In this document: positions 734-35,156 of the stretch, one piece after another | Position numbering within the stretch: position 1 is the stretch's first letter | Layout: every line of letters begins with the position of its first letter | DNA from: an uncultured delta proteobacterium | GTDB lineage: Bacteria; Myxococcota_A; UBA9160; SZUA-336 | Assembly (NCBI GenBank): GCA_963704165.1 | Contig: CAVPHD010000001.1 | Span: 96,001-160,000, forward strand | DNA length: 64,000 nt | Direction: 5' to 3' | Notes under the pieces: model-generated | What the model was told of the DNA's origin: nothing | Databases searched by the model: none | Seen by the model: only the letters and a program-made list of their open reading frames with translations | Position numbers and translations under genes: made by a program

Positions 734-1552
734 TCAGGCCTTGAACCGCTCCGCGGTAGCGTACCTCTGCTCGAGCCCGACGAGATCGCCGAACTCCTCG
801 AAGCCGAACTTCGCCTTCGTGTCTTCCGCACTCATGCCCGTCGCCACGAGTTCGGCGAAGACCCGCTCCATCGCGCGCGACGCGGCGAGCAGCCCGGTGA
901 GCGGGTAGACGACGTACTCGAATCCGAGATCGCGAAGCTCCTGCCGGCCGAGAATCGGCGTCTTCCCACCCTCGACCATGTTCGCCATCAGCGGACCGGG
1001 CACCTCGCGACCGATCCGCGCGAGTTCCTCTCGCGACTGCGGCGCTTCGACGAAGATCAGATCCGCGCCCGCTTCGCGGTACATGCGTCCGCGCCGGATC
1101 GCCTCGTCGAGCCCGAGTGGCGCGCGGGCATCGGTTCGTCCGAGGATCGTGAAGCTCGCACCCGCACGCGCTTCGACGGCGGCGCGGATCTTCTGCACGT
1201 GTTCCTCGGCACGAATGACTTCCTTCCCCTGCATGTGCCCGCAACGCTTCGGCCAGACCTGATCCTCGAGCAGCATTCCCGAAGCACCCAGCGCGAGCAG
1301 CTCGCGTACCAGTCGCTGCACGTTCAACGGTCCGCCATGACCCGTGTCGCCATCGACGATCACGGGTATGCGCACGGCGCGCACGATACGACGTGCGGTC
1401 TCGAGCATCTCCGTCTGCGTCAGCAGCCCGAAGTCGGGCTCGCCGAGCTGCGTGCCGGCGACGGCGAAACCCGAGACGAACAAGAGCTCGAAGCCAGCGC
1501 GTTCCGCGAGCTTCGCCGAGAGAGCGTCCCAGACACCGACGGAGAGCGTCAC
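734..1552 (-). CDS. Isocitrate lyase / PEP mutase family protein (methylisocitrate lyase or oxaloacetate decarboxylase-like)
   Basis: DGDTGHGG, LEDQVWPKRCGH, RTDAR and AGADLIFVEA motifs. The GTG start at 1552 overlaps the upstream TGA (GTGA). Confidence 0.9.
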   Translation of the reverse strand: MTLSVGVWDALSAKLAERAGFELLFVSGFAVAGTQLGEPDFGLLTQTEMLETARRIVRAVRIPVIVDGDTGHGGPLNVQRLVRELLALGASGMLLEDQVWPKRCGHMQGKEVIRAEEHVQKIRAAVEARAGASFTILGRTDARAPLGLDEAIRRGRMYREAGADLIFVEAPQSREELARIGREVPGPLMANMVEGGKTPILGRQELRDLGFEYVVYPLTGLLAASRAMERVFAELVATGMSAEDTKAKFGFEEFGDLVGLEQRYATAERFKA

Positions 1553-2865
1553 GCGAGACTCGCGGCGAGCTCGCGAACGTCGCGCACGTCCTCGAGCGAC
1601 GCGAACGCGGACACGAGAGACCTCGCGCGATCCGTGCCGAGGGCGGGCTCGAGACAGAGCCCAAGCTTCGCGCCTCGCTGCTCTTCGTCGAGCGGATTCC
1701 GCGGGTGTCCGCGCGCGATCCTGACCGCCGCTCGCTCTCGCGTACCGTCGCTGAACACCAACTCGACCTCCTCGTCCGGGGATCGCGACTCGCGCACGAC
1801 GACCTGCCGCAGCAGCGCCTGAACGTCGGAGGCGCGGGCACGCGCGTCCGAGAACGCAGCGAGTCCGGGCCAGCCGTCGAGCCACGCGATCGCGGCGCAG
1901 TACGGGAGCGAGAACTTCGCCTCGAGCCCGGTGCGCGGTTCGGGGTAGATCAGGATCTTCAAACCGAGCGGGTCGCTCGCGCACTCGATCGCGCGCAGCT
2001 CACGGTGCGCGTGTTTCTCGCGCAGCTCGAGCACGGCGTCGATCGTGCGGTGCGTGAACCGACACGACGGGTACGGCTTGAGCTCCACGCCGGGCGACTC
2101 GAGCGCGAAGCCGGAGTCCAGCGGTGGCAGCTCGAACGGTCGATTTCCGCCGTACAGGTCCGCGAGTCCCATCTCCATTTCGAGCGCGTCCTCGCGCGCG
2201 GTCACCGAGCGAAGCGCGAGCTCCGCGGTCTCGAGTCCGGAGCGCGCGGCCAGGCCCGCGTGGAGCGGCTTTGCATCCGTTCCGAAGTTTCCGCGTGTTC
2301 CCGACGCGCGAGACACCGCGATCCCGAACGCGCGACGGAGTGCAGCTTCGTCGAGCCCGAGCAAGACGCCCGATGCGGCCGTCGCCCCGAACACGCCGAG
2401 CGTGGATGTCGCGTGCCAGCCGCGCTCGTAGTGCGGCTTTCCGAGCGCCTGTCCGAGCCGCGCCTCGACCTCGAAGCCGACGATGTACGCGTGCAACAGG
2501 TCCGCGCCCGAGCGTCCGAGCGCCTCGGCCAGCGCAAATGCCGCGGGCAGGAGCGGCACCGTCGGATGGCCGTTCATCGCCCAGGAGACGTCGTCGAAAT
2601 CGAGCGCATGTGCGGCCGCTCCGTTGACGAGCGCGGCGAGCGCCGGAGATACGCGCTCTCCTGTTCCCCACAGGCTCGCGCGCGGGTGCGATCCCTGCTC
2701 GAGCGCGAATCCGCGCAGCTCGCGTGTCACCCGCTCGTCGCGGCCGGCGATCGCACACGCGATGGCGTCGAGCATTGCGGCCCGAGCATGGGCTCGCACC
2801 GATTCGGGCACGGTCTCGAGTGCGAGCCCGTGCGCAAACGCAGCCAGACGTCCGGTGGCACTCAT
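1549..2865 (-). CDS. MmgE/PrpD family protein
   Basis: NGAAAHALDFDD, GHPT, GWHATS, KPLHAG, KPYPSC and KFSLPY motifs. The ATG at 2865 overlaps the upstream stop (TGATG). Confidence 0.92.
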   Translation of the reverse strand: MSATGRLAAFAHGLALETVPESVRAHARAAMLDAIACAIAGRDERVTRELRGFALEQGSHPRASLWGTGERVSPALAALVNGAAAHALDFDDVSWAMNGHPTVPLLPAAFALAEALGRSGADLLHAYIVGFEVEARLGQALGKPHYERGWHATSTLGVFGATAASGVLLGLDEAALRRAFGIAVSRASGTRGNFGTDAKPLHAGLAARSGLETAELALRSVTAREDALEMEMGLADLYGGNRPFELPPLDSGFALESPGVELKPYPSCRFTHRTIDAVLELREKHAHRELRAIECASDPLGLKILIYPEPRTGLEAKFSLPYCAAIAWLDGWPGLAAFSDARARASDVQALLRQVVVRESRSPDEEVELVFSDGTRERAAVRIARGHPRNPLDEEQRGAKLGLCLEPALGTDRARSLVSAFASLEDVRDVRELAASLA

Positions 2866-3566
2866 CACGTCTCCGGATTCGGCGGCGTCGCCCGATTCGA
2901 CCCGAGCACCGTCGGTGCGATCTCGCGCGGATGCTCGAGCACGAACTCCGCTCCCGCCGCGCGCAACTCGGCATCGCCGCGGAGTCCCCAGCCGCAGCCG
3001 ATCGTCCGCGCGCCGGCCGCGAGACCGGTCTCCACGTCGACGGCGCTGTCGCCGACCATCCAGACTTCGGCGGATCGGTTGCCGAGACGCTCGAGAACGT
3101 GCACGAGGACCGCCGGGTCCGGCTTGCGGATCGAGAGCGTGTCTCCTCCCAATACCGCGCCGAAGACGAACTTGAGACCGAGCCCGTCGATGATGCGGTG
3201 CAGGAAGCGCACCGGCTTGTTCGAGAGCACGGCCAGGGTTTCCCCCGCCAGCGAGTCCAGGCATCCGGCCATGCCCGGATAGAGCTCGGTCGTATCGAGA
3301 CAGCAGCGGTCGTAGTGCGCACGGAATCGCTCGTAGTGAGACTCGAGTCGCTCCGGCGCGCGCTCCGGTTCGGGCAGTGACATCGAGAGGAGCTTCAATG
3401 CGCCGTCGCCGATCCAGGCCTTCACCTGCGGACCCGTCACGGGTGGAAGATCCGCATCCGCAAGCGTCCGATTCAGCGCCACCGCCAGGTCGCGCCAGGT
3501 GTCCGCGAGAGTGCCGTCGAAGTCGAAGATCACCACGCGGCCTGACGGAGCTCTTTCCACGCGCAC
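2865..3566 (-). CDS. HAD family hydrolase, phosphoglycolate phosphatase-like
   Basis: FDFDGTLAD, LSNK, KPDP and VGDSAVD motifs. The start may be the GTG at 3560. Confidence 0.9.
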   Translation of the reverse strand: MRVERAPSGRVVIFDFDGTLADTWRDLAVALNRTLADADLPPVTGPQVKAWIGDGALKLLSMSLPEPERAPERLESHYERFRAHYDRCCLDTTELYPGMAGCLDSLAGETLAVLSNKPVRFLHRIIDGLGLKFVFGAVLGGDTLSIRKPDPAVLVHVLERLGNRSAEVWMVGDSAVDVETGLAAGARTIGCGWGLRGDAELRAAGAEFVLEHPREIAPTVLGSNRATPPNPET

Positions 3567-20405: not shown

Positions 20406-20861
20406 ATGAGTCCGACGGTCGCTTGGCGTGCGCTCCGTGTCGCCGGCTTCGTGTGCCTCACCGGGTGTCTCGACTTCCACTCTCGTGCCGTCGAGGAGAC
20501 TCGCACAGGACTTCTCGGGCTCGAGGGTCGGGAGCTGCGCGACTGTCTCGGCATCGTCTCGGATTTCGAGATCGACGGCGACATCGAGCGCCAAACCTAT
20601 CGCTTCGAGCGCGATGATCCATCCGACGACGGCGCCGGCGCGGGCGCCCTCGGCGGCGTCGCGATCGGCGGCCGTCCGGAGGTCGATCGACGTCACGACC
20701 CGCACGGCTTCCCGATCGACCGGCCAGATCAGTCGTACTGTCAGCTCGACTTCGAGCTCACGCGGGGCCGCGTCACGCGAGTTCTCGCGCACGGTCGGAC
20801 ACGCGAGGGCATGAACGCGGACGCGACCTGCATGCTTCGCGCGCAGCGTTGCCTTCCGTAG
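20406..20861 (+). CDS. Hypothetical lipoprotein
   Basis: Lipobox LTGC and four further Cys; directly follows the suf operon. Confidence 0.65.
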   Translation: MSPTVAWRALRVAGFVCLTGCLDFHSRAVEETRTGLLGLEGRELRDCLGIVSDFEIDGDIERQTYRFERDDPSDDGAGAGALGGVAIGGRPEVDRRHDPHGFPIDRPDQSYCQLDFELTRGRVTRVLAHGRTREGMNADATCMLRAQRCLP

Positions 20862-21102: not shown

Positions 21103-22092
21103 TTGGGGATCCGCGTCTCTGCGCGGAACTGGATCGCGTGCTGCGCGTGGGCCGCCGTCTGCCTGCTCGCTGCTGGAGAGGCTCGCGCGCTCGGCACGCC
21201 GGCCGGCACTCCGATCGCGAACACGGCGACCGTCAGCTACGAGATCGCCGCGAGCGCGTACACGCAGAGCGCGACGGCGGTGTTCGCGGTCGACGAGCGG
21301 ATCGACGTCGTCGTCACCTGGCAGGATGCGGCGGCGGTGCTGGTCGCACCCGCGGACCTCGACCGCGTGATCACGTTCCTGATCACGAACACGGGCAACG
21401 GCGCCGAGACCTTCTCGCTCGCCGTCGATCCGCTGCTCGCGGGCGACCAGTTCGATCCGGTGAACGCGCGCGTGTACATCGACGCGAACGACTCGACGAC
21501 CTACGAGGCGGGCGTCGATCCCCTGTACCAGCCGGGCGTGAATGATCCGCTGCTCGCCGCCGACGCCGCGCGACTCGTCTTCGTGCTCGCCGACATTCCC
21601 GCTGCCGCCCTGAACGGAGAGCGAGGCGACGCGGAGCTCCGGGCGACTTCGCTCACGGGCAGCGTCACCGGCGCGGTGGTTCCGGGTGCGGGCGATCTCG
21701 GGACCGACGCGGTGATCGGCGGCGGCACGAGCGCGATGAGCGGAAGCTACCTGGTCGCCGACCTGATCGCCGCGATCGCCAAGTCGGCCGTGGTCTCCGA
21801 CACCGGCGGCGGTAGCACGCCCGCGCCGGGAGCGACGATCACCTACACGCTGCTCGTCACGACGAGCGGAACGGGCACGGTCGACAACCTGGTCATCACC
21901 GATCCGCTGCCCCCGTTCACCAGCTACGTCCCCGGCTCGCTCACGCTGAACGGCTCCGCGCAGAGCGATGCCGCGGACCTCGATGCCGGCGACGTGGGCG
22001 GCACGACACCCAATCAAGTCACCGTCGCGCTCGGGAACGTGGCCGGCGGCTCTCTCCCCCAAACCATCACGTTCGCAGTCACGATCGATTAG
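21103..22092 (+). CDS. Secreted DUF11-domain protein (putative pilus subunit A)
   Basis: Signal peptide ending ARA, N-terminal GTPAGTPIANTATVSY, and a C-terminal DUF11 (IAKS..PGATITYTL..ITDPLP..YVPGS..TITFAVTID). TTG 21103 follows GGGAGAG; the ORF extends back to 21067. Confidence 0.88.
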   Translation: MGIRVSARNWIACCAWAAVCLLAAGEARALGTPAGTPIANTATVSYEIAASAYTQSATAVFAVDERIDVVVTWQDAAAVLVAPADLDRVITFLITNTGNGAETFSLAVDPLLAGDQFDPVNARVYIDANDSTTYEAGVDPLYQPGVNDPLLAADAARLVFVLADIPAAALNGERGDAELRATSLTGSVTGAVVPGAGDLGTDAVIGGGTSAMSGSYLVADLIAAIAKSAVVSDTGGGSTPAPGATITYTLLVTTSGTGTVDNLVITDPLPPFTSYVPGSLTLNGSAQSDAADLDAGDVGGTTPNQVTVALGNVAGGSLPQTITFAVTID

Positions 22093-22103
22093 GAGGGAAC
22101 GAA

Positions 22104-22598
22104 ATGAAGAACGCAATCGCACTGGCACTGACCGTATTGCTCCCAGCGTGGAGCGCGCATGCGATCGAGAGCGCGGGGAATCCCGCGGTCGAGATCGCGA
22201 TCACCGCAGAGGTCGAAGTCACGATCAAGACCGAGGACGGACGCGAAGAAGTGAAGCGCGTACCCGCAGCGAAGGTACCACCGGGTGAGGCGGTGATCTT
22301 CACGTTGCACGCGAAGAACAACGGCGAGAAGCCGGCGAACGACGTGATCGTGACCGACCCGATCCCCGAGCACATGGACTACGTGGACGGATCGGTGAGC
22401 GAGGGCGGAGCGCGAGTGACGTTCTCCGTCGATGGCGGAAAGAGCTTCGCGGCCAAGGAGAAGCTGAAGGTTCGCGGTGAGGACGGCGCGCTTCGTGCGG
22501 CCCTCGCTACCGACTTCACGCACATCCGCTGGCAGCTCGAGACGCCGCTTGCGCCCGGTGAAGCTCGAGAGGTGAGCTTCCGCGCACGCGTGGAGTGA
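22104..22598 (+). CDS. Small secreted DUF11-like protein (putative cap or chaperone)
   Basis: AGGAGG RBS, signal peptide (AHA), PGEAVIFTL..NNGEKPANDVIVTDPIP..YVDGS..LAPGEAREVSFRARVE. Confidence 0.85.
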   Translation: MKNAIALALTVLLPAWSAHAIESAGNPAVEIAITAEVEVTIKTEDGREEVKRVPAAKVPPGEAVIFTLHAKNNGEKPANDVIVTDPIPEHMDYVDGSVSEGGARVTFSVDGGKSFAAKEKLKVRGEDGALRAALATDFTHIRWQLETPLAPGEAREVSFRARVE

Positions 22599-22698
22599 GA
22601 GAAGAGATTCCCCCCCCTTGAAAGGGTGGAAGCGTGAGACACACGCTCAAGTGTCTATTCGAGTTGAGTTGAGTTGGACATACAGCAAGGAGAAGGCA

Positions 22699-23763
22699 AT
22701 GTTGAGGCATGACTTGAAACGACTGGCAAGTGCGCTTGCCACCGCTGCGCTCTTGTGGAGCACGGCGGGGACGGCATCGGCGGTCGGCGCCGACGCTGGC
22801 ACCGTCATCTCGAACACCGCCACCGTGGACTACAGCGTGAACGCCGTAGTCCAGCCCACGGTGGCCAGCGTAGCCGTCGACTTCGTCGTCGATCGGCTGA
22901 TCGACCTGACGGTGACGGCCGTCCCGGTGACCTACGTCGCCGTGACGCCGAGCTCCGACGGGGCGTTCCTGTTCACACTGACCAACACCAGCAACGCCGA
23001 GCTCGGATTCGACCTCAGCGCGGCGAACAACGCAACGGACCCCTTCGGCGGCACGGACAACTTCGATCCGAGCGCGCTGACCACGGTCGTGGACGCGGGC
23101 GTGCTCGGGACCTACGAGCCGCTCGTCGACGTCGCCACGACCGTCGATTCGCTCGCAGAGGACGGCTCGGTGGGCGTGTGGGTGGTCGCGACGATCCCCG
23201 GTGGCCAGGCCAACGCGGACATCGCGGCGGTCACGCTGACTGCGACGGCGCGCGAGACGACGGCCAACGGCGGCGGCGCCGTGGTCGAGCAGGCCAATCC
23301 GGAGGATCCGGCAACCATGGAGACCGTGTTCGGCGACGGCGCGGGTGACACCGACGCCGCGAATGCGGCCGACTTCTCGGACAGCGGCGCGTTCCAGGTG
23401 GAGTCCGCCGACGTGACGATCACGAAGACCGAGACGCTGATCAGCGACCCGGTGAATGGCGCCGCGCCCAACGCTCGCCACATCCCGGGTGCGATCGTCG
23501 AGTACGTGGTGACGGTGACCAATGACGCCGCTTCCGCGCTCTCGGCGACGACGCTGACCATCAGCGACGTGCTTCCCGGTGACGTGACGTTCGAGCCGGA
23601 TACCTATGGCGTCGGATTCGGCATCGACCTCGACTCGGTCGCGCAGTCGAATGCCGCGGATCTCGACCAGGGGTCCGAGGCGGCGGGCACCGTGACGGTG
23701 ACCGTGCCGTCGCTCGCGCCGGGGGCTTCCGCGGTGATCACCTTCCGGGTGTCCGTGGACTAG
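22699..23763 (+). CDS. Secreted DUF11-domain protein (putative major pilus subunit C)
   Basis: AAGGAG RBS, signal peptide (ASA), N-terminal GADAGTVISNTATVDY, and a C-terminal DUF11 (ITKT..PGAIVEYVVTVTN..ISDVLP..LAPGASAVITFRVSVD). Paralogue of 21103-22092. Confidence 0.9.
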   Translation: MLRHDLKRLASALATAALLWSTAGTASAVGADAGTVISNTATVDYSVNAVVQPTVASVAVDFVVDRLIDLTVTAVPVTYVAVTPSSDGAFLFTLTNTSNAELGFDLSAANNATDPFGGTDNFDPSALTTVVDAGVLGTYEPLVDVATTVDSLAEDGSVGVWVVATIPGGQANADIAAVTLTATARETTANGGGAVVEQANPEDPATMETVFGDGAGDTDAANAADFSDSGAFQVESADVTITKTETLISDPVNGAAPNARHIPGAIVEYVVTVTNDAASALSATTLTISDVLPGDVTFEPDTYGVGFGIDLDSVAQSNAADLDQGSEAAGTVTVTVPSLAPGASAVITFRVSVD

Positions 23764-23778
23764 CGCTCGAATCGCCAA

Positions 23779-26700
23779 GTGGTGGGTCCCCTCCCCCGAA
23801 GGTCGCGGCACGTCGAGTGCCCGCGCGCCGGCTCACGCGCCGGTGTGACGGGAGACTTGCGTCCGCGAGCCGCGACGGAGAACCCACCGGACCGCACCCG
23901 TGCGGTTCGCAAGTCGTGCCTCAACGAGCCGGCTGGGTCGGGAATTCCCCGATTCAGCCGGCTCTGCGAGGTGCTGGCGCTTCTGCTGCTCGCGTTCGCC
24001 CTGCTTCCGTCGAACGCACGCGCGCAGACACCGGTGGGGACTGCGATTCCCAATACCGGTTACGCGACCTACGACATCGGGAGCACGGTCGGAATCGTCC
24101 GTCCGTCGAACACGCTCGTGATCACGACCGCGGTCGTGAGCTCCGGTTCGAGCCTGGAGTTCATGCGCTACGCACCCGGAGCACCGGGTTCGACCAGTTA
24201 CGGTGTCACCGCCACCGCTTGCTTCAGTGGCGGCAGTTTCAATCCGCTGCCGGCGCCCAACGCGTACGGTGGCGGCGCGATCAATCTGGCGAGCGTCGAG
24301 CTGATCCCGACGCCTGCCTATCATCCCGGCGAGCCGATCTTCGTGCGGCTCGTCGACGCGGACCAGAATCGGAACTCGACCCTGGTCGAATCCGTTCTCG
24401 TCGCGCTCTCCGCGCCCGGCGTCGCCGATCTCGAGCAGCTTCGGCTCTTCGAAACCGGCGTCGCGACGGGCGTCTTCGTCGGCTACGTGCCGTCCGCGGC
24501 ACCCCCGGCACCCGCCAACGACTGCGTGCTCGCCGCCCCTTCGGGTCAGACGGTTCTCGGCAATTACGTCGACGCATTCGATGCGAGTGACTCGGACTCC
24601 GACACCGCATGGATCGACCCCGAGAGCCGGGTCTTCGACAGCGCGACCGGTGCTCCGATCGACTTCGCGGTCGTCACCCTGATCGACGAGATCACCGGGC
24701 TCCCCGCGACGGGGATCCTGGGAGACGATGGCGTGAGCACGTTCCCCGCCACCCTGACGACCGGTGGCTCGGTCACCGATGGCGGCGGGCAGATCTACAA
24801 CTTCGGTCCGGGCGGCTATCGCTTCCCGGTGGTTCCCGTCGGCAGCTACCGATTGCAGGTCGCGCCGCCCTCGACGTACGGCTTTCCGAGCGCGGTCCCC
24901 GATGTCGTGCTGCAGGCGCTTCCGGGCGCGCCGTTCGCGCTCGTCGTCGGTTCGCGCGGAGAGGTCTTCGACGTCATCGCGGGCCCGACCTTCGAGATCG
25001 ATCTGCCGCTCGACGCGGCATCGTCCGCGGGCTTCATCTCGATCCGCGCCAGCCGCGACGTCGTTTCGATCGGCGAGCACTTCCAGTTCGACGTCCGCGT
25101 CGAGAATCCCGGCGTGGCGGACGCTCCGCTCGGGGTCGAAGTGACCGTGGTGCTTCCGCCCGGGGTCAGGTTCACGCCGCAGTCGGTCCGGATCGACGAC
25201 CAGATCCAGCCCGACCCGCTGATCTCGCCCGACGGGCGCACGCTCACGTGGACGCTCCCTGCGACCCTTGCCCCGGTCGTGACGCACATCCGTTTCACCG
25301 TGAAGGTCGAGCCGAGCGTTCGAGCGGGACTCGTCCGCACGACCGCACGCGCGGAGGCGCTCGGCGGATCGATCACCGAGGATGCGGTCGCGACGGTACG
25401 CGTCGAGGAGGATCTCGGCGCGAACAGCGCCTACGTGGTGGGTCGCGTGTCGGCCGGCCACTGCGACACGGACGACTTCGCGGGTGAAGCCGTCCCGGGG
25501 GTACGCGTCTACCTCGAAGACGGAACCTACTCCGTCACCGACGCGAACGGCTACTACCACTTCGCAGGACTCCGAAGTGGCGCCCACGTCGTACAGATGG
25601 ACGTGCAGAGCCTGCCCGGGTTCTACGAGCCGCTCCCGTGCGCCAACGCCGAGGGGCATGCCTTCGCGGGCCGGCCGTTCTCGCAGTTCGTGGACGTCCA
25701 AGGTGGAACGCTGTGGCGCAGCGACTTCCGCGTGCAGCTGCGACCGCGTCGCGAGGGCGGAATCAGTCAGCGACTCGAGAGCCAGCTCGAGGGCGACACG
25801 ATCCGCTATCAGCTCGCGCTGCGCGGCAACGGCGTCGCGGTGCGAAACGCGCGCGCGGTGGTGATGCTGCCCGAAGGCGTGGAGTTCGTGCCGGGCAGCG
25901 CGCGCAACGCGGGTGCTCCGATCGCAGATCCCGAGACCAAGAACGGGGTGGTCACCTTCCGACTCGGAGAGCTGAGCTCGGAGGAGTGGTCGATGGACCT
26001 CGCGCTCGACGCGATCGTCGACGGGCGGGCCGAGCGCGAGCTCGAGACATCGTCCGTGGTCATGTTCGAGACACCGGTCGAGAAGCTCGCCAAGACACCC
26101 GCCGCGAAGACGCGCCTCCACGGCGAGTCGAGCTCGGGCAGCGGACTCAAGCTCGTCGAGACGCTGGGGCTTCGACCGGGAGAGGAGTGGCAGACGAAGA
26201 CCGCGCCGGAAATCGATGCCGCGCCGCCCAAACCCGGCGTCTACAACAAGATCTGGCTCGAGAAGGCGACGCCCGGACTCGAATGGCTCTCACCCGAACC
26301 CGGATTCGCGGCGGCGATCGCGAGCGTGAACATCGCGATCAAGCACGCGCCCGGAACGACCATCGAGCTGGTACAGAACGGGGTGGCCGTACCGAAGTTC
26401 AACTTCGAAGGTGCGTTCTCGAACACCGGCAAGACCGTATCGCTCTCGCGTTGGCGCGGTGTGGACCTGGTCGATGGCGAGAACAGCTTCGTCGCACGCG
26501 AGCTCGACGCTTCGGGGAACGAGATCGCGCGACTGGATCGCTCGCTCCACTACGCCGGACCGCCGTTCCGCGCCGTGCTCGTGCCCGAGCTGTCGCGGCT
26601 CGTCGCCGACGGGCGAACGATCCCCGTGATCGCGGTGCGCTTCACCGACGAGGACGAGAAGCCCGCACGCGAGGGACAGGTCGGCACGTACGAGATCGAC

Positions 26701-29481
26701 GCGCCGCATCGACCGAATCGCGACGCGTCGGCCGGGGAGCTGCGACGCCAGGCGGGGCTCGCGCCCGAGTCGCCGAGCTACGTGATCGGCCGCGACGGTG
26801 TGGCTCGGATCGAGCTCGCGCCCACGACCCGTTCGGGGCGCGTCGGCCTTCGCTTCGCGTTGGCGGGACGCCAGCGCAAAGAGCTGCACCCCTGGCTCGA
26901 GGCGGAGGCTCGCGATTGGGTGCTCGTCGGGCTGACGGGCGGCACGCTTCTGCACAGCTCCGTCTCCGAACACACCGAGAGCCTCGTGCCGTCCGACGTC
27001 GAGGACGGCTACGACCTCGATCGCGGCACCACCGTCTTCGCGAAGGGCCGGATCAAGGGCTCGTGGCTGCTCACCGCCGCCTACGATTCGCAGCGGGAAT
27101 CGCGCGAGTCCTCGAGCGACCTCGATCGGGCCGCGCTCGAGGGGGGCCTCGATCCGAATCGCTATTACACGCTCTACGGTGACGCGACGACGCAGGGCTA
27201 CGAGGCCCCGAGCCAGCGCAAGCTCTACCTGAAGCTCGAACGCAAACAGTTCTACGCGCTCTTCGGTGACTTCCAGACCGGCCTCACCGTCACCGAGCTC
27301 TCGCGCTACAGCCGCGCGCTGAACGGATTCCACACCGAGTACGACGGCGACCACGTGTCCGTGAATGCCTTCGGCACCGACACGAGCCAGGCCTTCGTTC
27401 GCGACCAGATACGGGGTGACGGCACGTCGGGCCTGTACCGACTCTCGCGCTCCGGGATCGTGCTGAACAGCGAACGCGTCACGATCGAGATCCGGGATCG
27501 TTTCCACGGTGAGCAGGTGATCTCTACGGAGGGCCAGACGCGCTGGACCGACTACAACATCGACTACACCTCGGGAACGATCTTCTTCAAGCGTCCGATC
27601 CCGAGCACCGGCGAGGGCTTCAATCCCGTGTACATCGTCGTCGAGTACGAGTCCGACGACGACTCCGACCAGGAGCTGAACGGTGGCGGTCGCGCAGCCG
27701 TGAAGCTCCTGGACGACAACGTGGAGCTCGGGGCGTCGCTGATCCACGAAGGCACGGTGGGACAGACGTCGAGCCTGTACGGCAGCGACTTGCGGATCGA
27801 TCTCGACGGCGCGACGAGCCTGCGCGCCGAGTTCGCGCAGACGCGCTCCTCGCTGCTCGGCTCGAATGCCGACTCGAGCGGCGCGGCCTGGCTCGCCGAG
27901 CTGTGGCGACGCGACAAGGATCTCGACTCGCGAATGTACTGGCGTGAGCAGCGCCCGGGCTTCGGCCTCGGTCAGCAGAGCTCGAGCGAAACGAACATGC
28001 AGCAGCTCGGAATCGACGCACGCTACCGTTGGAGCGACACGCTCGCGCTCTCCGGCGAAGTGTTTCGCCAGGTCGATGTCGCCTCCGACGCGAGGCGCGA
28101 TCTCTTCGAGCTGCGCGCAGATCACCACGAAGGACCGTTCGGCGGTTACGGCGGCGTTCGCTTCGCGCACGACGTCTTCTCCGATGGAAGCAAGAGCTCG
28201 TCCCCACAGCTTCTCGGCGGCGGCAGCTACACGACCTACCAGAACCGGCTCAAGCTGCGCGCGGACTCGGAGATCACCGTCTCGGGCGACGAGAGCCTCG
28301 ACTTCCCGACGCGTTTCCTCGTCGGCGCCGATTTCCTGCTCCTGCCCGAGCTCACCGTCTTCGGCGAGGAGGAGCTCACGCTCGCGAGCGAACGGAGCAC
28401 GGCCTCGACGCGTGTCGGCCTTCGCACCAGCCCGTGGCGCGGCGGGCAGGCGACGGCCGCGATCGGCCAACGCAGTCAGCAGGACAGCGAGCGTCTCTTC
28501 GGAACGCTCGGACTGCTCCAGACCTATCAGCTGACCGACGCGCTCAGCTTCGACTTCGGGATCGACAACTCCGTGACGCTGAAGGGCGACGACCTGGCGC
28601 CGACGCAGGTCTCCCCGTTCGCGCCGGGACAGCCGGTCGCGAACGGCCTCTCGGGAAATCCGCAGGGAGACGACTTCACGTCGCTCTCCATCGGCACGAC
28701 GTACGCGCAGGACGTCTGGGCCGCGAACCTCCGCCTCGAGACGCGGTTCGGCCAGGTTCAAGACAAGTGGAGCATCACCGCCGGCGCCTATCGCGAGCTC
28801 GAGGCGGGAATCGGTGTCGCCGTCCGGGCGGAGTTCTTCGACTCCAGCGGCTCGAGCCCGTCGCTGACGACCGGACCCAGCTCGAGCACCGGACCGGTCT
28901 ACACCGCCGACGGCACGCTCCGTCCGAACACCGCATTCGACGGGATCGAATCGCTCGGCCGTCTGCAGCTGAGCGGCGTCTACCGACCGATCGGGAGCCG
29001 CTACACGCTGCTCGAGTCCCTCGAAATCCGCAGTGAGCGACTCGACTACGACGTCTTCCAGAGCCGCGCGACGCGGATCGTCAACAACATGAACCTGAAC
29101 GTGAAGCTCGACCGGAAGACCCAGGCCTCGCTGCAGTACGGCGCGAAGTACCTGTTCGAGCGTATCGACGGGTTGAACCTCGACGGCTACACCGACGTCA
29201 CCGGACTCGAGATCCGGCGCGATCTCTTCGGCAGCTGGGACATCGGCGGCCGCGTGGGAATGCGCCACTCCTGGACCGACGGCAACATCGAGGAGCTGTA
29301 CAGCGTCTCGCTCGGGTACGTGCTGATGAGGAACCTTTGGGTGAGCGCCGGCTACAACTGGGGTGGCTACAGCGATCGCGACTTCTCGGCGGGCAACTGG
29401 ACCACGCGCGGCCCGTTCGTCTCGTTCCGCTACAAGTTCGACCAGGAGACGGTCAAGGAGCTGCTCGACTGGGCGGAGTAG
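23779..29481 (+). CDS. Very large exported protein: Ig-like/DUF11/SdrD-B-like domains plus a predicted C-terminal outer-membrane beta-barrel (putative assembly platform)
   Basis: Signal peptide ending NARA (true start probably between 23845 and 23971). Two DUF11-like domains, GVRVYLEDGTYSVTDANGYYHF, and about 800 C-terminal residues of amphipathic beta-strands ending GPFVSFRYKFD. Confidence 0.85.
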   Translation: MVGPLPRRSRHVECPRAGSRAGVTGDLRPRAATENPPDRTRAVRKSCLNEPAGSGIPRFSRLCEVLALLLLAFALLPSNARAQTPVGTAIPNTGYATYDIGSTVGIVRPSNTLVITTAVVSSGSSLEFMRYAPGAPGSTSYGVTATACFSGGSFNPLPAPNAYGGGAINLASVELIPTPAYHPGEPIFVRLVDADQNRNSTLVESVLVALSAPGVADLEQLRLFETGVATGVFVGYVPSAAPPAPANDCVLAAPSGQTVLGNYVDAFDASDSDSDTAWIDPESRVFDSATGAPIDFAVVTLIDEITGLPATGILGDDGVSTFPATLTTGGSVTDGGGQIYNFGPGGYRFPVVPVGSYRLQVAPPSTYGFPSAVPDVVLQALPGAPFALVVGSRGEVFDVIAGPTFEIDLPLDAASSAGFISIRASRDVVSIGEHFQFDVRVENPGVADAPLGVEVTVVLPPGVRFTPQSVRIDDQIQPDPLISPDGRTLTWTLPATLAPVVTHIRFTVKVEPSVRAGLVRTTARAEALGGSITEDAVATVRVEEDLGANSAYVVGRVSAGHCDTDDFAGEAVPGVRVYLEDGTYSVTDANGYYHFAGLRSGAHVVQMDVQSLPGFYEPLPCANAEGHAFAGRPFSQFVDVQGGTLWRSDFRVQLRPRREGGISQRLESQLEGDTIRYQLALRGNGVAVRNARAVVMLPEGVEFVPGSARNAGAPIADPETKNGVVTFRLGELSSEEWSMDLALDAIVDGRAERELETSSVVMFETPVEKLAKTPAAKTRLHGESSSGSGLKLVETLGLRPGEEWQTKTAPEIDAAPPKPGVYNKIWLEKATPGLEWLSPEPGFAAAIASVNIAIKHAPGTTIELVQNGVAVPKFNFEGAFSNTGKTVSLSRWRGVDLVDGENSFVARELDASGNEIARLDRSLHYAGPPFRAVLVPELSRLVADGRTIPVIAVRFTDEDEKPAREGQVGTYEIDAPHRPNRDASAGELRRQAGLAPESPSYVIGRDGVARIELAPTTRSGRVGLRFALAGRQRKELHPWLEAEARDWVLVGLTGGTLLHSSVSEHTESLVPSDVEDGYDLDRGTTVFAKGRIKGSWLLTAAYDSQRESRESSSDLDRAALEGGLDPNRYYTLYGDATTQGYEAPSQRKLYLKLERKQFYALFGDFQTGLTVTELSRYSRALNGFHTEYDGDHVSVNAFGTDTSQAFVRDQIRGDGTSGLYRLSRSGIVLNSERVTIEIRDRFHGEQVISTEGQTRWTDYNIDYTSGTIFFKRPIPSTGEGFNPVYIVVEYESDDDSDQELNGGGRAAVKLLDDNVELGASLIHEGTVGQTSSLYGSDLRIDLDGATSLRAEFAQTRSSLLGSNADSSGAAWLAELWRRDKDLDSRMYWREQRPGFGLGQQSSSETNMQQLGIDARYRWSDTLALSGEVFRQVDVASDARRDLFELRADHHEGPFGGYGGVRFAHDVFSDGSKSSSPQLLGGGSYTTYQNRLKLRADSEITVSGDESLDFPTRFLVGADFLLLPELTVFGEEELTLASERSTASTRVGLRTSPWRGGQATAAIGQRSQQDSERLFGTLGLLQTYQLTDALSFDFGIDNSVTLKGDDLAPTQVSPFAPGQPVANGLSGNPQGDDFTSLSIGTTYAQDVWAANLRLETRFGQVQDKWSITAGAYRELEAGIGVAVRAEFFDSSGSSPSLTTGPSSSTGPVYTADGTLRPNTAFDGIESLGRLQLSGVYRPIGSRYTLLESLEIRSERLDYDVFQSRATRIVNNMNLNVKLDRKTQASLQYGAKYLFERIDGLNLDGYTDVTGLEIRRDLFGSWDIGGRVGMRHSWTDGNIEELYSVSLGYVLMRNLWVSAGYNWGGYSDRDFSAGNWTTRGPFVSFRYKFDQETVKELLDWAE

Positions 29482-30248: not shown

Positions 30249-32150
30249 CTATGCGAAAGAACTCGCGAACCCCGCACGGGCGAGCTCCGCGCGCAGCGCA
30301 CCGCCGGGCGTGAGCAGCCGGATCAGCGCGCGCACGGCCGGTCGTTGCAGGCGGCTCTTCGGCACGACGAAGTCGTAGTGCTCGCTGCGAAGCGGCCGAA
30401 ACCGGAGTCCGGACTCCCGCGCGATCGTCTCGATCGTCACGCCCCAGTCCGCGCGACCTTGCGCGATGGCCGCCGCAACCGCGTGATGCGAGCGAGGCTC
30501 GTACGCGTAACCGTCGGGGCGGCGAGAGCCGAGCAGGCCGTCGATCAGCACGCGTGTGCCACTGCCGCGGTTGCGGTTCACCATGCGCAGACTCGCATCG
30601 GCGACGAGCGCCTCGGTCGGACGCCGCTCGTCGTCGCGCGTGACCACGCCTTGCATGCGCAGGTAGCCCGGAACGAGCGCGAGCGTATCGTCGAGAAAGG
30701 GCGTGTTGTAGCAGTCGGACTTCGGATCGAGCAGGTGGGCGGGCGCGACGTCGCACTCGCCGCGCCGCGCCGCTTCGACCCCGCCGAGGGATCCGACCGC
30801 GAGCAGCTTCACCGTGAAGCCCTCCGCGAGCAGTGCGCGCGCGATCAGATCGAGCCCGGTGCAGTGGCTGCCGATCACGACCAGATCCGCCGGCGCGAGC
30901 GTGGGGCCGAGCAGCGTGACCTCGACCTCGGCGCCCGCTTCGACGATCTCGAGATTCCGCTCCAATCGCACGAAGCCATCGGCACGGCTCCAGGTCGTCA
31001 CGCTGCCGCTGCCCTTCCCCATCGGATACGCGCCGAGCCCGCCATCGGCTCCACGGACGAGACCGACGAGCAGATACTCGAGTCGTCCCCGTTCGGTGAG
31101 GGTGCGCAGCGCGAGATTCGCCTTCACGGTTTCGCGTTCGAGCTCCGGCGTGCCCGCGAGCCTGCGCAGAACCGGCGCGACGAACTCGTGAAACGTGAAG
31201 ACCGCCGAGGTGGGAAATCCGGGCAGGATCACGACGGGCTTTCCGCGCTGCGCCGCGAGGCAGATCGGTTTGCCGGGCTTCAGCGCGACGCCGTGGACGA
31301 GAATGCCGGGCTCGAGTCCCGCGACGACCCGGTAGGAGAGATCGCCTTCCCCCTTCGAGGTTCCTCCCGAAAGCACGACGGCGTCGCACTCCGCGAGTCC
31401 GCGGTCGAGCGCGCGCCGCAACGCCGCCTCCTCGTCGCGAAACGCGCCGAAGAAGACCGGCTCGCCGCCGAGCTCGCGGACGGCATCTGCGATCATGCGG
31501 CCGTTCGAATCGAAGACCAGTCCGGGCCGCATCGGCTCGCCCGGCGCGATGATCTCGTCGCCGGTGGAGATCACCGCGACGCGCGGCTTGCGCACCACGT
31601 CGATGCGGCAGATGCCGATCGCCGCGAGCACACCCGTCTCGCGCGAAGAGAGTCGCGTGCCTGCGAAGAGCACCGTTTCGCCGAGGCCGATGTCCGTTCC
31701 CGCGAACGCCACCGCAGCGCCGGGCACGCGTGCCGCGCGTACGACGACCATCCTCCCGCCATCCTCGATGTCGGTCAGCTCGACGGGCACGACGGCATCG
31801 GCGCCGCGCGGAAGCATGCCGCCGGTCGCGATCGAAGTCGCCGTTCCCGGATCGACGCTGAGTACGGGAGTCACGCCGGTCGGGATCGTCTCGTCGTTCA
31901 ATCGCAAGCGCACCGGTTCGAGCTCGCTCGCACCGAACGTGTCCTCGGCGCGGATCGCGAAGCCGTCCATGTTCGAACGGTCGAAGCTCGGCACGTCGAC
32001 GGGTGCGCGCACGTCCGCGGCGAGCACGCGGCCGAGCGCCGCGTCGAGCGCAACCTCCTCGGCAGCGAGTCGGTCGAGCGTGAGCGCCGCGTGCCAGCGC
32101 GTTTCGGCGACGTCGCGGTCGAGAACCTCGAGAAACTGCTCCTGCTTCAC
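30249..32150 (-). CDS. Molybdopterin biosynthesis MoeA fused to a periplasmic-binding (PBP/LysR-substrate) domain
   Basis: FDRSNMDGFA, STGDE, SGGTSKG and LPGFP, then GSHC, VGSLGG, VNRNRGSGTR and GRADWG. Confidence 0.92.
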   Translation of the reverse strand: MKQEQFLEVLDRDVAETRWHAALTLDRLAAEEVALDAALGRVLAADVRAPVDVPSFDRSNMDGFAIRAEDTFGASELEPVRLRLNDETIPTGVTPVLSVDPGTATSIATGGMLPRGADAVVPVELTDIEDGGRMVVVRAARVPGAAVAFAGTDIGLGETVLFAGTRLSSRETGVLAAIGICRIDVVRKPRVAVISTGDEIIAPGEPMRPGLVFDSNGRMIADAVRELGGEPVFFGAFRDEEAALRRALDRGLAECDAVVLSGGTSKGEGDLSYRVVAGLEPGILVHGVALKPGKPICLAAQRGKPVVILPGFPTSAVFTFHEFVAPVLRRLAGTPELERETVKANLALRTLTERGRLEYLLVGLVRGADGGLGAYPMGKGSGSVTTWSRADGFVRLERNLEIVEAGAEVEVTLLGPTLAPADLVVIGSHCTGLDLIARALLAEGFTVKLLAVGSLGGVEAARRGECDVAPAHLLDPKSDCYNTPFLDDTLALVPGYLRMQGVVTRDDERRPTEALVADASLRMVNRNRGSGTRVLIDGLLGSRRPDGYAYEPRSHHAVAAAIAQGRADWGVTIETIARESGLRFRPLRSEHYDFVVPKSRLQRPAVRALIRLLTPGGALRAELARAGFASSFA

Positions 32151-33403
32151 GACGTCCTCTCGTCGGCGCGCGATTCCTCGTCGTAGAGCAGCACCTCGAC
32201 CTCGGCGCCCTCGGGCATGCCCTCGAGACCGCGCGGCACGATCACGGCGCCGTCGGCGCGAACCGTCGAAGACAGGATCGAAGCGCCCGCCGTCGCGACC
32301 GGCACCACGCGCCCGCCGTCGAAGGCGACGCGCACGTAGTCGGTGCGGCCGACTTCGGAGCTGATCTTGCGCGCGAGCAAGGCCCGCACGCGCCGATGCG
32401 GCCAGACGCGGGACCGCCCCCCGAGCGCGCGGATCGTCGGCCCCGCGAAGAACTCGTACGCGCACAGACAGCTGACCGGGTTGCCTGGCAAGAGGAAGAC
32501 GAGCGCGTCGCCGATCCGGCCACCGCCCGCGGGGCTCGACGGCCGCATCGATACGCCGTGGAAGAGCAGCTCGCCGTGCGCGGCCAGGAGCCGCGGCGCG
32601 TGGTCTTCGGCGCCGACGCTCGAGCCGCCCGAGACCAGCACGACGTCGGCGTCTCCCGACGTGAGCACTTCGGAGATTCGCTCGGGCTGATCCGGGATCA
32701 GCTCGAACGGGAGCAGCGCGCCACCGTCGCGCGCGACCAGCGCGCGGAGCACGACGGAGTTCGAATCGACGATTCTGACGCCGTCCGGTGTAGATCCGGG
32801 AGCCAGAAGCTCGTCACCCGTGACGACGAGCCGCACGCGTGGCCTTCGCACGCAGAGAACCGATCCGGTGCCGATCGAGGCGAGCAGGCCCGCATCCTGC
32901 GGACGGATCCGGCGCCCCGCGTGCAGGACGACCTCGCCCGCGCGGATGTCTTCGCCGACGGCGCCGACGTGCTTGCGCGGAGCGACCGCTTCGTGGACTC
33001 GGACGAGCGCGCCGCGCTCCTCGCAGACCTCGGCCTTCGCCACCGCGTCCGCACCGTCGGGGATCGGCGCGCCGGTCATGATGCGCACCGCCTCGGCCGT
33101 ACCCACGCGTCCGCCGAACGCCCGGCCGGGATAGGCCTCGCCGACCAGCTTGAACTCGAGCGTCGCGTATTCGGATGCGCCGAACGTGTCTTCACCGCGA
33201 AGCGCGTAGCCGTCCATCGCCGAGCGCGCGAAGCCCGGCACGTTCACGCGCGATGCGACTTCCTGGGCGAGCACGCGTCCGGCGCACTCGAGCAGCGGCA
33301 CCGGTTCCTCGCCGAGGCTCGTGCAGGTGGACACGAGCAGGTGATCGACCTGCTCGACGTCCATCCGCTCCGCGAAGCCCCGCATCCGGACGTCGCGACT
33401 CAT
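32147..33403 (-). CDS. moeA: Molybdopterin metal insertase MoeA
   Basis: RSAMDGYA, IMTGAPIPDGADAV, TGDEL, SGGSSVG and LPGNPVS motifs. Confidence 0.92.
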   Translation of the reverse strand: MSRDVRMRGFAERMDVEQVDHLLVSTCTSLGEEPVPLLECAGRVLAQEVASRVNVPGFARSAMDGYALRGEDTFGASEYATLEFKLVGEAYPGRAFGGRVGTAEAVRIMTGAPIPDGADAVAKAEVCEERGALVRVHEAVAPRKHVGAVGEDIRAGEVVLHAGRRIRPQDAGLLASIGTGSVLCVRRPRVRLVVTGDELLAPGSTPDGVRIVDSNSVVLRALVARDGGALLPFELIPDQPERISEVLTSGDADVVLVSGGSSVGAEDHAPRLLAAHGELLFHGVSMRPSSPAGGGRIGDALVFLLPGNPVSCLCAYEFFAGPTIRALGGRSRVWPHRRVRALLARKISSEVGRTDYVRVAFDGGRVVPVATAGASILSSTVRADGAVIVPRGLEGMPEGAEVEVLLYDEESRADERTS

Positions 33404-33434: not shown

Positions 33435-35156
33435 TCAGCCAGCCGCCTTGGTCGTGAAGAGATTCTCTCGCGCCGGCTTGCGTACCTTGGCGTCGGCGAT
33501 GACCGCGGCGGGAACGTCGAAGACGACCTTCGCCGGACCGATCGCGTCCTCCTTCATGCACGCCGGGAGCACGTCGTCGGCAGCCGTGAACCCGGCGCGG
33601 CGATTGAACTCCCACTCGTCCTCGAGAATCTGCCAGCCCTGATCGGCGATCTCCTCACGCGAAACGTCGCGCCCGACGAAGTGGCCGTAGTACCCACGGA
33701 TGTCGTCGAGCGTCGGCTGGATGAACTGGCAGAAGCCCGATGAATCGCAGACCGCGTTCACGAGCTGAACTTCCTGAGAGGCGACGGCGAACTGGTCGGG
33801 CGGAAGGCCCGGGTTCACGATCAGGCCCGCGGTGTGATCCGCGCCCTGGGCGCTCGTCGCGTACGTGACTCCGGTGGCCTTGAGTGGCCGCGGATCCCAA
33901 GCGGGAATCGCCTGGTTTCGAACCACCGGAACGCGGTGGTGCCCCGTGTGCTTGCCGGTCGCGGCGCAGCCGTTGCCGATCACCTTGCCGAGCTCGGTGC
34001 CCTTGCCGACGTCGGCGACGAGCTTCTTCATCGCGGCGGCGTCGCCCCAGTTCATCTTGCCCGCGTCCATCAGCACGCCGATCGCGGCGCCGGTCTCGAT
34101 CGTGTCGAGTCCGACCTCGTCGCAGAGGCGATCGAGATCCGCGACGTCTTCCCAGCTCGTGACCGCACAGTTCGCGCCGAGCAGCGTCAGCGTTTCGAAC
34201 TCGAGCGCGCTCGTCTTGTACTTGCCCTCGGCGTCGTGAACGATGTTCGAGCAGCGCACGATGCAGCCCGTGAGGCAGTTGTGCATGCCGCCGCCGCGCT
34301 TGTCGAAGCTCTCGACGATCCGAGCACCGTCGAGGTTCGCCGCGTCGGGCGACTGCCCGAAGACGCGGTTCTTGTACGGGAACGTCTGCAGCATGTTCGC
34401 GATCGGCACGATCGACGACGTGCCGGTCTTGAACATCTGCGGACCGTCGAGGTACGCCTTCGTGTACTTCTTCGCGAGCTCGTTGAAATCGGACTTGTTC
34501 TTGGGCTCGCGCACGCGCGCCTTGCCGCGCTCGATCGCGACGAACTTCAGGCGCTTCGAACCCATCACCGCGCCCACGCCGCCGCGCGCCGCCTGACGCG
34601 CGGGGTGTCGGCTGTCCTGGTCGGTGCACGCGACGGACGCGCCGGTCAGGAGCTGCTCGCCCGCGGGACCGATCGTGATGAACGAGGCGTTCTTCGTGTA
34701 CTTCTTCGCGAGCTCCTCGCAGGTCGCGTAGTTCCACTTCATCTTGAGGTGGTCGGCCGGAACGATTCGCACGCCCGCGTCGTCGCACTCGAGACCGTAG
34801 AGCGCCGCCTTGTCCTTCGGCTGTCCCTTCACGACGATCGCGCGGATCCCGAGCTTGGCGAGATCCTGTCCGGGATTTCCGCCCGAATTCGCTTCCTTGA
34901 TGCCACCGGTCAGCGGGCTCTTGCAGCCGACGCTGATCCGTCCGGAGGTCGGCGCGGACGTTCCAGAGAGCACGCCGGGCGCGAGCACGAGCAGGTTCTC
35001 GGGACCGAGCGCGTCGCACTTCGCGTTCTTCAGATCGCGCAGGAGGATCTTCGCCGTGAGCCCGCGGCCTCCGAGCAGCTCCCATTCCTTGGGCAGGTTC
35101 TCGCTCGACACTTTCATGCTGCCCATGTCGACGTGAACGATCTTGTCGCCTTCCAT
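33435..35156 (-). CDS. Aldehyde:ferredoxin oxidoreductase (tungsten AOR family)
   Basis: LGGRG, KSPLTGGIKEANSGG, GVGAVMGSK, CLTGCIVRC, EFET, CDEVGLDTIE and DSSGFC motifs. Confidence 0.93.
   Translation of the reverse strand: MEGDKIVHVDMGSMKVSSENLPKEWELLGGRGLTAKILLRDLKNAKCDALGPENLLVLAPGVLSGTSAPTSGRISVGCKSPLTGGIKEANSGGNPGQDLAKLGIRAIVVKGQPKDKAALYGLECDDAGVRIVPADHLKMKWNYATCEELAKKYTKNASFITIGPAGEQLLTGASVACTDQDSRHPARQAARGGVGAVMGSKRLKFVAIERGKARVREPKNKSDFNELAKKYTKAYLDGPQMFKTGTSSIVPIANMLQTFPYKNRVFGQSPDAANLDGARIVESFDKRGGGMHNCLTGCIVRCSNIVHDAEGKYKTSALEFETLTLLGANCAVTSWEDVADLDRLCDEVGLDTIETGAAIGVLMDAGKMNWGDAAAMKKLVADVGKGTELGKVIGNGCAATGKHTGHHRVPVVRNQAIPAWDPRPLKATGVTYATSAQGADHTAGLIVNPGLPPDQFAVASQEVQLVNAVCDSSGFCQFIQPTLDDIRGYYGHFVGRDVSREEIADQGWQILEDEWEFNRRAGFTAADDVLPACMKEDAIGPAKVVFDVPAAVIADAKVRKPARENLFTTKAAG

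Follow-up and report, generated by a model that had tools for sequence, protein, structure and literature searches.

Proteins with split CLIPPER (DUF11) domains predicted to lock into a surface fibre in an outer-membrane bacterium

How is a domain that cross-links itself within one chain to work when the protein ends short of the strands that carry one of the linking residues? This question is raised by four adjoining genes, A, B, C and D, in a 64,000-nucleotide stretch of DNA from an uncultured delta proteobacterium (contig CAVPHD010000001.1 of assembly GCA_963704165.1, positions 96,001 to 160,000), which at its full length is referred to here as the window. All four genes lie on the forward strand (window 21103-29481) and encode secreted products, and Pfam and NCBIfam searches found DUF11 / TIGR01451 in A, B, C and D, with CarboxypepD_reg-like immunoglobulin (Ig) domains in D as well. 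DUF11 has been renamed CLIPPER, and the crystal structure 9IFR of Acinetobacter silvestris B9T28_05395 contains a Lys715-Asn806 isopeptide bond with catalytic Asp748 in a CnaA-like fold whose first strand bears the Lys and whose penultimate strand bears the Asn (PMC12617251, in the part of the paper available). An earlier note on this locus had taken the DUF11 Lys, Asp and Asn for a CnaA-type triad, which the crystallographic Lys-Asn isopeptide and catalytic Asp in the available part of PMC12617251 bear out, and had assigned seven Lys, Asp and Asn codons in A, C and D, all of which proved to be in frame and to encode the residues assigned to them. In this study, we propose that a CLIPPER domain is split between proteins: strands 1-7, with the Lys and Asp, would end A, B and C, the last two strands, with the Asn, would begin mature A, C and D, and the subunits would plug together head to tail and lock through predicted Lys-Asn bonds into a fibre held by D. 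We put the probability of this reading at about 0.62.

The last two strands of the domain are missing from proteins A, B and C, and A, C and D start with a two-strand hairpin (Table 1). The unsplit reference within the family is an internal domain of D, and aligning the C and D families with hhalign placed C 235-325 on D 349-428 (probability 88.4, E 2.8e-6), with the Asp column of C on Asp375 of D and VITFRVSV of C on HIRFTVKV of D, which is strand 7 (418-428 in the model); past the end of C the D domain runs 35 residues further and forms two more strands, 8 and 9 (435-445 and 451-461). Protein B aligned with the same complete domain (probability 85.8, E 5.4e-6), and its KR Lys fell in the Lys column. 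The ends are as constant as the alignments suggest: in a set of 122 A/C relatives, made up of 120 listed homologue matches plus window A and C, the last residue stands in the end column of C in 120, A co-terminates with the C family (alignment A1), and all 121 of the B relatives end in one column. The acceptor Lys is kept in 121/122 of the A/C relatives, the sole exception being window A itself, which is misaligned by two columns and does have the Lys, and the Asp is kept in 121/121. By sequence comparison, both the split and the conservation of these residues are far beyond chance. In CLIPPER the Asn belongs to the domain that also holds the Lys and Asp, on its penultimate strand, and a sandwich of about nine strands is completed within one chain segment; the conserved Asn of A and C lies about 200 residues upstream on an N-terminal hairpin, and none of A, B and C has the complete sandwich. 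The claim of the earlier note that the domain is split thus stands for A and C on the hhalign result and the end columns, with two amendments: the missing piece is a two-strand hairpin and not one strand, and B is truncated too.

With a curated Pfam DUF11 (PF01345) cut-off of 24.6 bits, whole proteins A, B and D scored 27.5, 42.3 and 26.2 bits and C fell just below it at 24.4, and the isolated domains of C and A reached 30.1 and 32.0 bits. On the C domain the Pfam match stops after covering positions 8-83 of 114; the corresponding end in A (profile position 95-96) is unreliable, and its end at strand 7 was taken from direct alignment (hhalign, A1). VIA-align set the two domains of mature C at 39-208 and 208-326. 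Structural searches pointed to no specific relative: Foldseek of the C model against the PDB gave generic tandem Ig-like matches only (integrin legs, PrgB, antigen I/II, CfaB), and the best VIA-align hit had Z 9.9 to mu-adaptin C-terminal domains, 9IFR not being among the rows shown. A PDB sequence search with the A2 alignment profile gave no match, and other PDB sequence searches linked B weakly to GhpA (E 0.28) and the A domain to 9IFR at E 0.18 amid DARPin noise.

Table 1. Positions of the genes, domains and reactive residues of the A-D cluster and of a related acceptor-only protein (window coordinates, except in the last row)
Feature	Position	Strand	Description
Gene A	21103..22092	+	329 aa from TTG 21103, open frame from 21067; signal peptide, donor hairpin, middle Ig-like domain, truncated DUF11 acceptor domain
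A donor hairpin	21190..21288	+	predicted mature N-terminus, LGTPAGTPIANTATV; Asn 21220-21222 (IANTATV)
A acceptor domain	21760..22089	+	DUF11 strands 1-7; Lys 21781-21783 (AIAKS), Asp 21901-21903 (ITDPLP); ends ...ITFAVTID
Gene B	22104..22598	+	164 aa, single truncated DUF11 domain, donor hairpin absent (acceptor only)
B acceptor residues	Lys 22254-22256, Asp 22356-22358	+	Lys is the KR Lys
Gene C	22699..23763	+	354 aa from ATG 22699; two-domain layout as in A
C donor hairpin	22783..22887	+	mature residues 1-35, VGADAGTVISNTATVDY; Asn 22813-22815
C acceptor domain	23404..23760	+	mature 208-326; Lys 23425-23427 (TITKT), Asp 23566-23568 (ISDVLP); ends ...VITFRVSVD
Gene D	23971..29481	+	1836 aa from GTG 23971, open frame from 23779; giant putative anchor protein: signal peptide, donor hairpin, Ig-like stalk domains, ~900-aa C-terminal part
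D donor hairpin	24025..24126	+	mature residues 1-34, QTPVGTAIPNTGYATY...SN...; Asn 24052-24054
D internal complete DUF11 domain	25030..25413	+	mature 336-463; Pfam 25.9 bits; in-family unsplit reference
D C-terminal region	26776..29478	+	~900 aa, likely outer-membrane beta-barrel, inferred
663-aa protein	G000 contig 4, 140096-143509 (L003), ORF (open reading frame) 1420-3411; also L034	minus strand of locus

The counterpart of the missing strands stands at the other end of the proteins. As read, the mature N-termini are LGTPAGTPIANTATV in A, VGADAGTVISNTATV in C and QTPVGTAIPNTGYAT in D, the cleavage sites being A-x-A sites read by eye from the sequence and not predicted by a tool; signal ends of this type, with no lipobox Cys, were read in all four proteins. 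The hairpin Asn is residue 11 (A and C) or 10 (D) past the A-x-A site. AlphaFold2 modelled short strands at 8-35 of C, and residues 7-18 and 21-34 of D as a regular hairpin, this hairpin with predicted local distance difference test (pLDDT) values of 72, 91, 90 and 68 in successive blocks, so weaker on the flanks. Conservation in homologues, which the earlier note had named as a check that could refute it, came out in its favour: the Asn is kept in all 118 A/C relatives that cover the column (4 others are cut at the N-terminus), matching the Lys and Asp counts above, and in an alignment of A orthologues Asn, Lys and Asp are kept in 8/8. Its statement that D keeps the donor Asn likewise held throughout the D relatives, with Asn10 in 66/66, together with Ser28 in 66/66 and Asn29 in 60/66. 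Among 258 single-module relatives, which include 50%-identity cluster representatives, Asn, Lys and Asp are all present in 243; the hairpin Asn is absent in 10, of which 9 retain both Lys and Asp.

The ten relatives without the hairpin Asn are P0406, P0435, P0444, P0457, P0470, P0481, P0500, P0390, P0402 and P0468, and carry Ser (in 7), Leu, Asp or Ala in its place. They may form non-covalent joints, rely on the Asn of another subunit, or possibly use other chemistry.

The two parts fit together in length. Between strand 7 and the Asn, the tail of C (1 residue) plus the mature lead (10) makes 11 residues, compared with 10 in the intact domain of D, and judged by this count the cut is seamless. 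The same junction is found uncut in P0362, a protein of 696 residues with two A/C-type modules in one chain, which starts with a donor hairpin, has a complete domain at the junction and ends in a truncated acceptor. Its module 1 strand 7 (IRFSVTVN) is followed by ASQAPNTSIAN..., which is the hairpin of module 2, and then by the module 2 middle domain, the Asn of the module 2 hairpin again lying 11 residues past strand 7 of module 1. Pfam DUF11 spans this joint with 27.1 bits, and DUF7933 spans it to its last position (123/123), below cut-off. As far as its sequence tells, P0362 is arranged in line, as expected from the chain model.

Not every member carries both parts. B and a second protein, of 663 residues, are acceptor-only, and D is donor-only, a division that would be understandable only with hairpins passed from one protein to another. 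The 663-aa protein is secreted, with a region of about 500 residues at the N-terminus that matches no Pfam family and a truncated DUF11 acceptor at the C-terminus, in which the Lys, an SDP motif and the Asp are kept in 8/8 extracted relatives; a donor motif was absent from the mature N-terminus of all 5 full-length proteins of this type. Since its Lys and Asp are conserved without an Asn, it would need the Asn of another protein. It was found in 11/301 sampled genomes of the phylum, all 11 of which also carry the A/C family (12/301), and in two genomes of two other genera its gene lies directly upstream of gene A; in the own genome of the window it lies away from the A-D cluster and adjoins an RND pump gene. 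The 663-aa protein is a candidate subunit of the A-D system, as a tip or an adhesin. D is the converse case: within D 83-545 the only column with Lys in at least 70% of relatives is position 340 (47/66), which belongs to the internal domain with an Asn of its own, and because the hairpin Asn of D is invariant without a conserved Lys partner in D itself, lending of the hairpin between proteins is favoured; in the D model this hairpin is a plain ribbon, weaker at its flanks.

Several points weigh against the reading put forward here, and they are taken with the alternatives on which they bear. AlphaFold2 modelled C as a monomer with pLDDT 96.4 and a predicted template-modelling score (pTM) of 0.84 for the two-domain protein, the hairpin reaching pLDDT 91-98, which suggests that the hairpin docks in its own chain, and such docking looks sterically possible in the model. 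A and C might then be circularly permuted closed modules, in which the hairpin completes the C-terminal domain of the same molecule and the bond is intramolecular, and the D hairpin would at most serve B or the 663-aa protein, the product being a two-part adhesin and not a polymer. The weaker flanks of the D hairpin (72 and 68), in a protein with no truncated domain within 83-545, agree with such closure, and an intramolecular reaction would be faster. The docking of the C monomer is nonetheless weak evidence, because an AlphaFold2 monomer run can satisfy hairpin-groove couplings only within one chain. Strand 9 of an odd-stranded sandwich should moreover exit opposite strand 1, and linkers of 2-4 residues would better suit an in-line chain, which is the order that P0362 has with a normal loop length. 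Closure within one chain also leaves the D Asn, invariant in 66/66, without partners other than B and the 663-aa protein, and gives no role to A and C, which are conserved as a pair in every operon. Finally, loss of the Asn is uncoupled from loss of Lys and Asp in the same protein (9/10 keep both), unlike in the intact domain of D described below, which favours lending between chains. Three things temper the argument: P0362 stands alone, the count behind the decoupling (10/258) is small and the sequences are mutually related; the comparative evidence for lending between chains is therefore suggestive. On balance, we consider closure within one chain unlikely, and assembly between chains likely.

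Assembly between chains could also take place without any bond. Chaperone-usher and type V pili are known to hold without covalent bonds, and the hairpins might be lent in the same manner, with Asn, Lys and Asp kept for packing or hydrogen bonds. In line with this, Lys is present in 104 and Asp in 94 of the 121 B relatives and both are present in just 79, window B having both, and Ser, Leu, Asp or Ala replaces the Asn in the 10/258 relatives named above. Taken together, the relaxed triad of B and the absent Asn mean that some joints must be bond-free, which also counts against locking as a general property. On the other hand, the three residues occur together in 243/258 relatives, a figure that counts against packing alone. 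The internal domain of D offers a comparison: of 66 D relatives, 46 keep Lys340, Asp375 and Asn439 alike, 19 have lost all three and 1 is mixed, so that the three columns behave as one unit. Such all-or-none behaviour is the signature of a functional triad, and the equivalent residues form the bond in 9IFR (PMC12617251, available part). In window D itself the three internal positions are Ile, Val and Thr, so this stalk domain is presumably not self-crosslinked. Complementation without a covalent bond seems to us quite improbable, and a covalent joint between chains probable.

A further point concerns the hairpin itself. A hidden Markov model (HMM) of strands 8-9 reached at least 5 bits on 39/120 C-family N-termini (reversed controls 0/120) and on 17/120 D-family N-termini (reversed 1/120), and in its alignment the partner of the hairpin Asn is the last-strand Asn, in the SN motif, and not Asn439; the hairpins of A, C and D alone matched 0 families in Pfam. 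The likeness of the hairpin to strands 8-9 is accordingly weak, and we do not count it as proof of homology. From this, and from the place of the N-terminal motif straight after the signal peptide in A, C and D of the one operon, it might be argued that D or some other machine reads the motif as a signal for sorting or export, and that the C-terminal domains are self-sufficient seven-strand variants. Against this, the motif forms a high-confidence hairpin in both models (C and D), it lies mid-chain at the place of strands 8-9 in P0362, where Pfam profiles span it, and the invariant Asn is matched by an invariant Lys and Asp on the truncated domains. We therefore find a sorting signal very hard to credit.

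If the domain is indeed split and shared between chains, assembly might proceed as follows. Sec export and signal-peptide cleavage would free the hairpin, which would complete the open sandwich of another subunit, and the middle domain of the donor would thus come to lie in line after the last domain of the acceptor, like the stalk of a tandem-repeat adhesin. The Asp would then help the Lys amine to attack the amide of the Asn, so that an amide bond forms and ammonia is released, as happens in intact CLIPPER domains. Because of the donor and acceptor parts that each protein carries, the chain would have a polarity: the acceptor-only pieces, B and the 663-aa protein, could stand at the far end only, A and C would be able to repeat in mid-chain, and D could only close the chain, at the cell. 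Speculatively, B may be a cap or a reversible holder of hairpins.

The anchoring role of D depends on its C-terminal part. Its last residues, about 900 in number, are likely an outer-membrane beta-barrel: look-alikes found with a language model fall in clusters auto-named 'outer membrane protein' (score 0.96), the protein ends in ...GPFVSFRYKF plus a short tail, a barrel-like C-terminal motif, and an OmpA domain (PF00691) stands at the C-terminus of many D relatives. Pfam found no family in this part of D, and it is a further point against the fibre that we infer the barrel from such likenesses. The protein-collection record of D (P0241) has the same length of 1836 residues as the gene model.

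Carried to its full extent, the proposal is that of an undescribed large class of pili in outer-membrane bacteria, derived from a tandem-repeat adhesin cut inside its isopeptide domains and assembled without chaperone, usher or sortase through joints that ligate themselves; B with its relaxed triad would perhaps be a reversible hairpin holder, bond formation would drive an ordered hand-over, and the A/C/D pairs would make up a natural library of orthogonal Tag/Catcher pairs. We regard this wider proposal as evenly balanced between being right and being wrong.

The family is widespread. The C-family profile matched 9611 cluster representatives at E <=1e-3, 4967 at 1e-10 and 1798 at 1e-30, the weaker matches including ordinary tandem DUF11 adhesins. 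Source names of some of the matches are Myxococcota, Gemmatimonadota, Nitrospiria and Pseudomonadota, and close homologues are labelled as from Myxococcota metagenome-assembled genomes. Among 145 further top matches of the profile, 118 are single modules that pass both the N-terminal Asn pattern and the C-terminal end pattern, another 17 single modules lack a match to the N-terminal pattern, 5 proteins fail the end pattern, 1 is a double module and 4 are giant repeat proteins.

The order A-B-C-D is conserved in 7/7 related loci from at least 4 genera, with 38-78% protein identity, and orthologues of A and of D were found in all seven. In one locus (L029, G148 contig 3) the C orthologue is a 799-aa stop-to-stop frame that loses similarity after about residue 311 of C, likely owing to a frameshift or assembly error. 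The flanks are unrelated to A-D, with a suf iron-sulfur operon upstream and MoeA-type genes downstream on the opposite strand. No chaperone, usher, peptidase or sortase gene adjoins the cluster in Pfam scans of A-D and 12 flanking genes, no LPXTG motif was seen on reading the C-termini of A-D, and sortase PF04203 had zero matches in the own genome, which is 84% complete, control genomes having matched; Omp85 was detected in the own genome. Of the sortase-independent fibre in a diderm that the earlier note had proposed, the independence from sortase and the outer-membrane setting are supported by these results within the 84%-complete genome, and the fibre itself remains a prediction.

Some features of the surroundings may be recorded here. 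Between the suf operon and gene A lies a 151-aa open frame (window 20406-20861, +) with a lipoprotein-like signal (LTGC) and no Pfam family, which among the loci checked stands upstream of A only in the same-genus loci L032 and L033 and is probably outside the A-D system. Downstream lie two MoeA-type molybdopterin genes (30249-32465, -, fused to a PBP-like domain, and 32147-33403, -), then a gene for aldehyde:ferredoxin oxidoreductase (33435-35156) and a ThiS-like one, and together these look like a tungsten or molybdenum cofactor neighbourhood. An Omp85-family match on G000 contig 3 (88153-89341, -) contains 3 in-frame TGA codons and overlaps a second match, and may be a broken or misassembled paralogue.

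If the joints do form between chains, outer-membrane bacteria would build covalent surface fibres from subunits alone, free of both the need for an enzyme that limits sortase pili and the non-covalent joints that limit chaperone-usher pili, and thousands of proteins of about 350 residues annotated as 'TIGR01451 repeat proteins' would gain a role. The split pairs are also potential natural CnaA-type pairs for protein ligation, and P0362 would be a useful construct for the geometry of the joint. The predicted fibre is of a kind for which the literature searched gave no description in bacteria with an outer membrane.

How does such a fibre compare with known systems? In chaperone-usher pili (type 1 and P pili), each incomplete Ig-like subunit receives a strand from the N-terminus of the following one, tip subunits have no donor, and assembly takes place at an outer-membrane protein and is not covalent. 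The incomplete Ig fold, the N-terminal donor and the donor-less tip are all mirrored in the A-D system, which differs in that Pfam found no PapD-like chaperone or usher family in A-D or the 12 flanking genes, and in that each donor would lend two strands and not one, that there is a reactive triad and that the anchor protein itself carries a donor hairpin. Type V pili of Bacteroidota start out as lipoprotein precursors, from which a protease cuts off the N-terminal part ahead of strand exchange, whereas no lipobox Cys was read in A-D and the cluster contains no protease gene. Sortase pili require an enzyme. In SpyTag/SpyCatcher and other engineered split domains of this sort, a 'catcher' with the Lys and the acid and a 'tag' strand with an Asn or Asp ligate spontaneously; those are CnaB-type domains cut in the laboratory, whereas here a CnaA-like domain was apparently cut by evolution, in at least 1798 cluster representatives.

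The CLIPPER adhesins share a homologous domain and a Lys/Asp/Asn triad with the A-D system. Their layout, from an adhesive tip through an Ig-like stalk to an OmpA-like anchor (PMC12617251, available part), recalls D, many relatives of which have an OmpA domain. They differ in that their triad lies in one domain of one chain, where it stabilises, whereas in the A-D system the domain breaks off past strand 7 and another (or the same) protein starts with the Asn hairpin; with the Asn on another protein, the bond would join subunits. We found no split or intermolecular form in the available part of PMC12617251, a survey of intramolecular bonds, no mention of CLIPPER or DUF11 in the available part of a 2026 review (PMC13721041), and no description of a split DUF11/CLIPPER fibre in the literature searched, with subscription journals and supplements lying outside that search.

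Two systems resemble the proposal in mechanism. In the Saci_0406 threads of Sulfolobus acidocaldarius, N-terminal strand complementation is combined with a proposed covalent isopeptide between subunits with no known sortase, but the bond runs from Asp24, through its N-terminal amino group, to Asn57 in subunit n+2 and is not a Lys-Asn bond inside a completed sandwich, and the protein is archaeal and has no Pfam domain (PMC9715654, available part). In BsaA of Clostridium perfringens, a donor-strand 'exchange and lock' with an Asn/Glu/Lys triad has already been reported, so the earlier note overstated how unprecedented such a joint would be, and mutants lose the oligomers (bioRxiv 10.1101/2024.11.04.621531, available part). 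As would be the case here, the N-terminal donor segment of BsaA becomes a strand in the next subunit and its Asn bonds to a Lys of the acceptor, which also carries the acidic catalytic residue. The fold of BsaA is TasA-like and not that of a CnaA-like CLIPPER, its acid is Glu where Asp is found here, and A-D gave no TasA-family Pfam match at E <=0.1; as far as the available part of the report describes it, the host is Gram-positive and uses the SipW peptidase and type IV pilus-linked secretion, with no outer-membrane anchor and no acceptor-only or donor-only partners. By analogy, the 'exchange and lock' of BsaA is the closest precedent for the mechanism proposed here.

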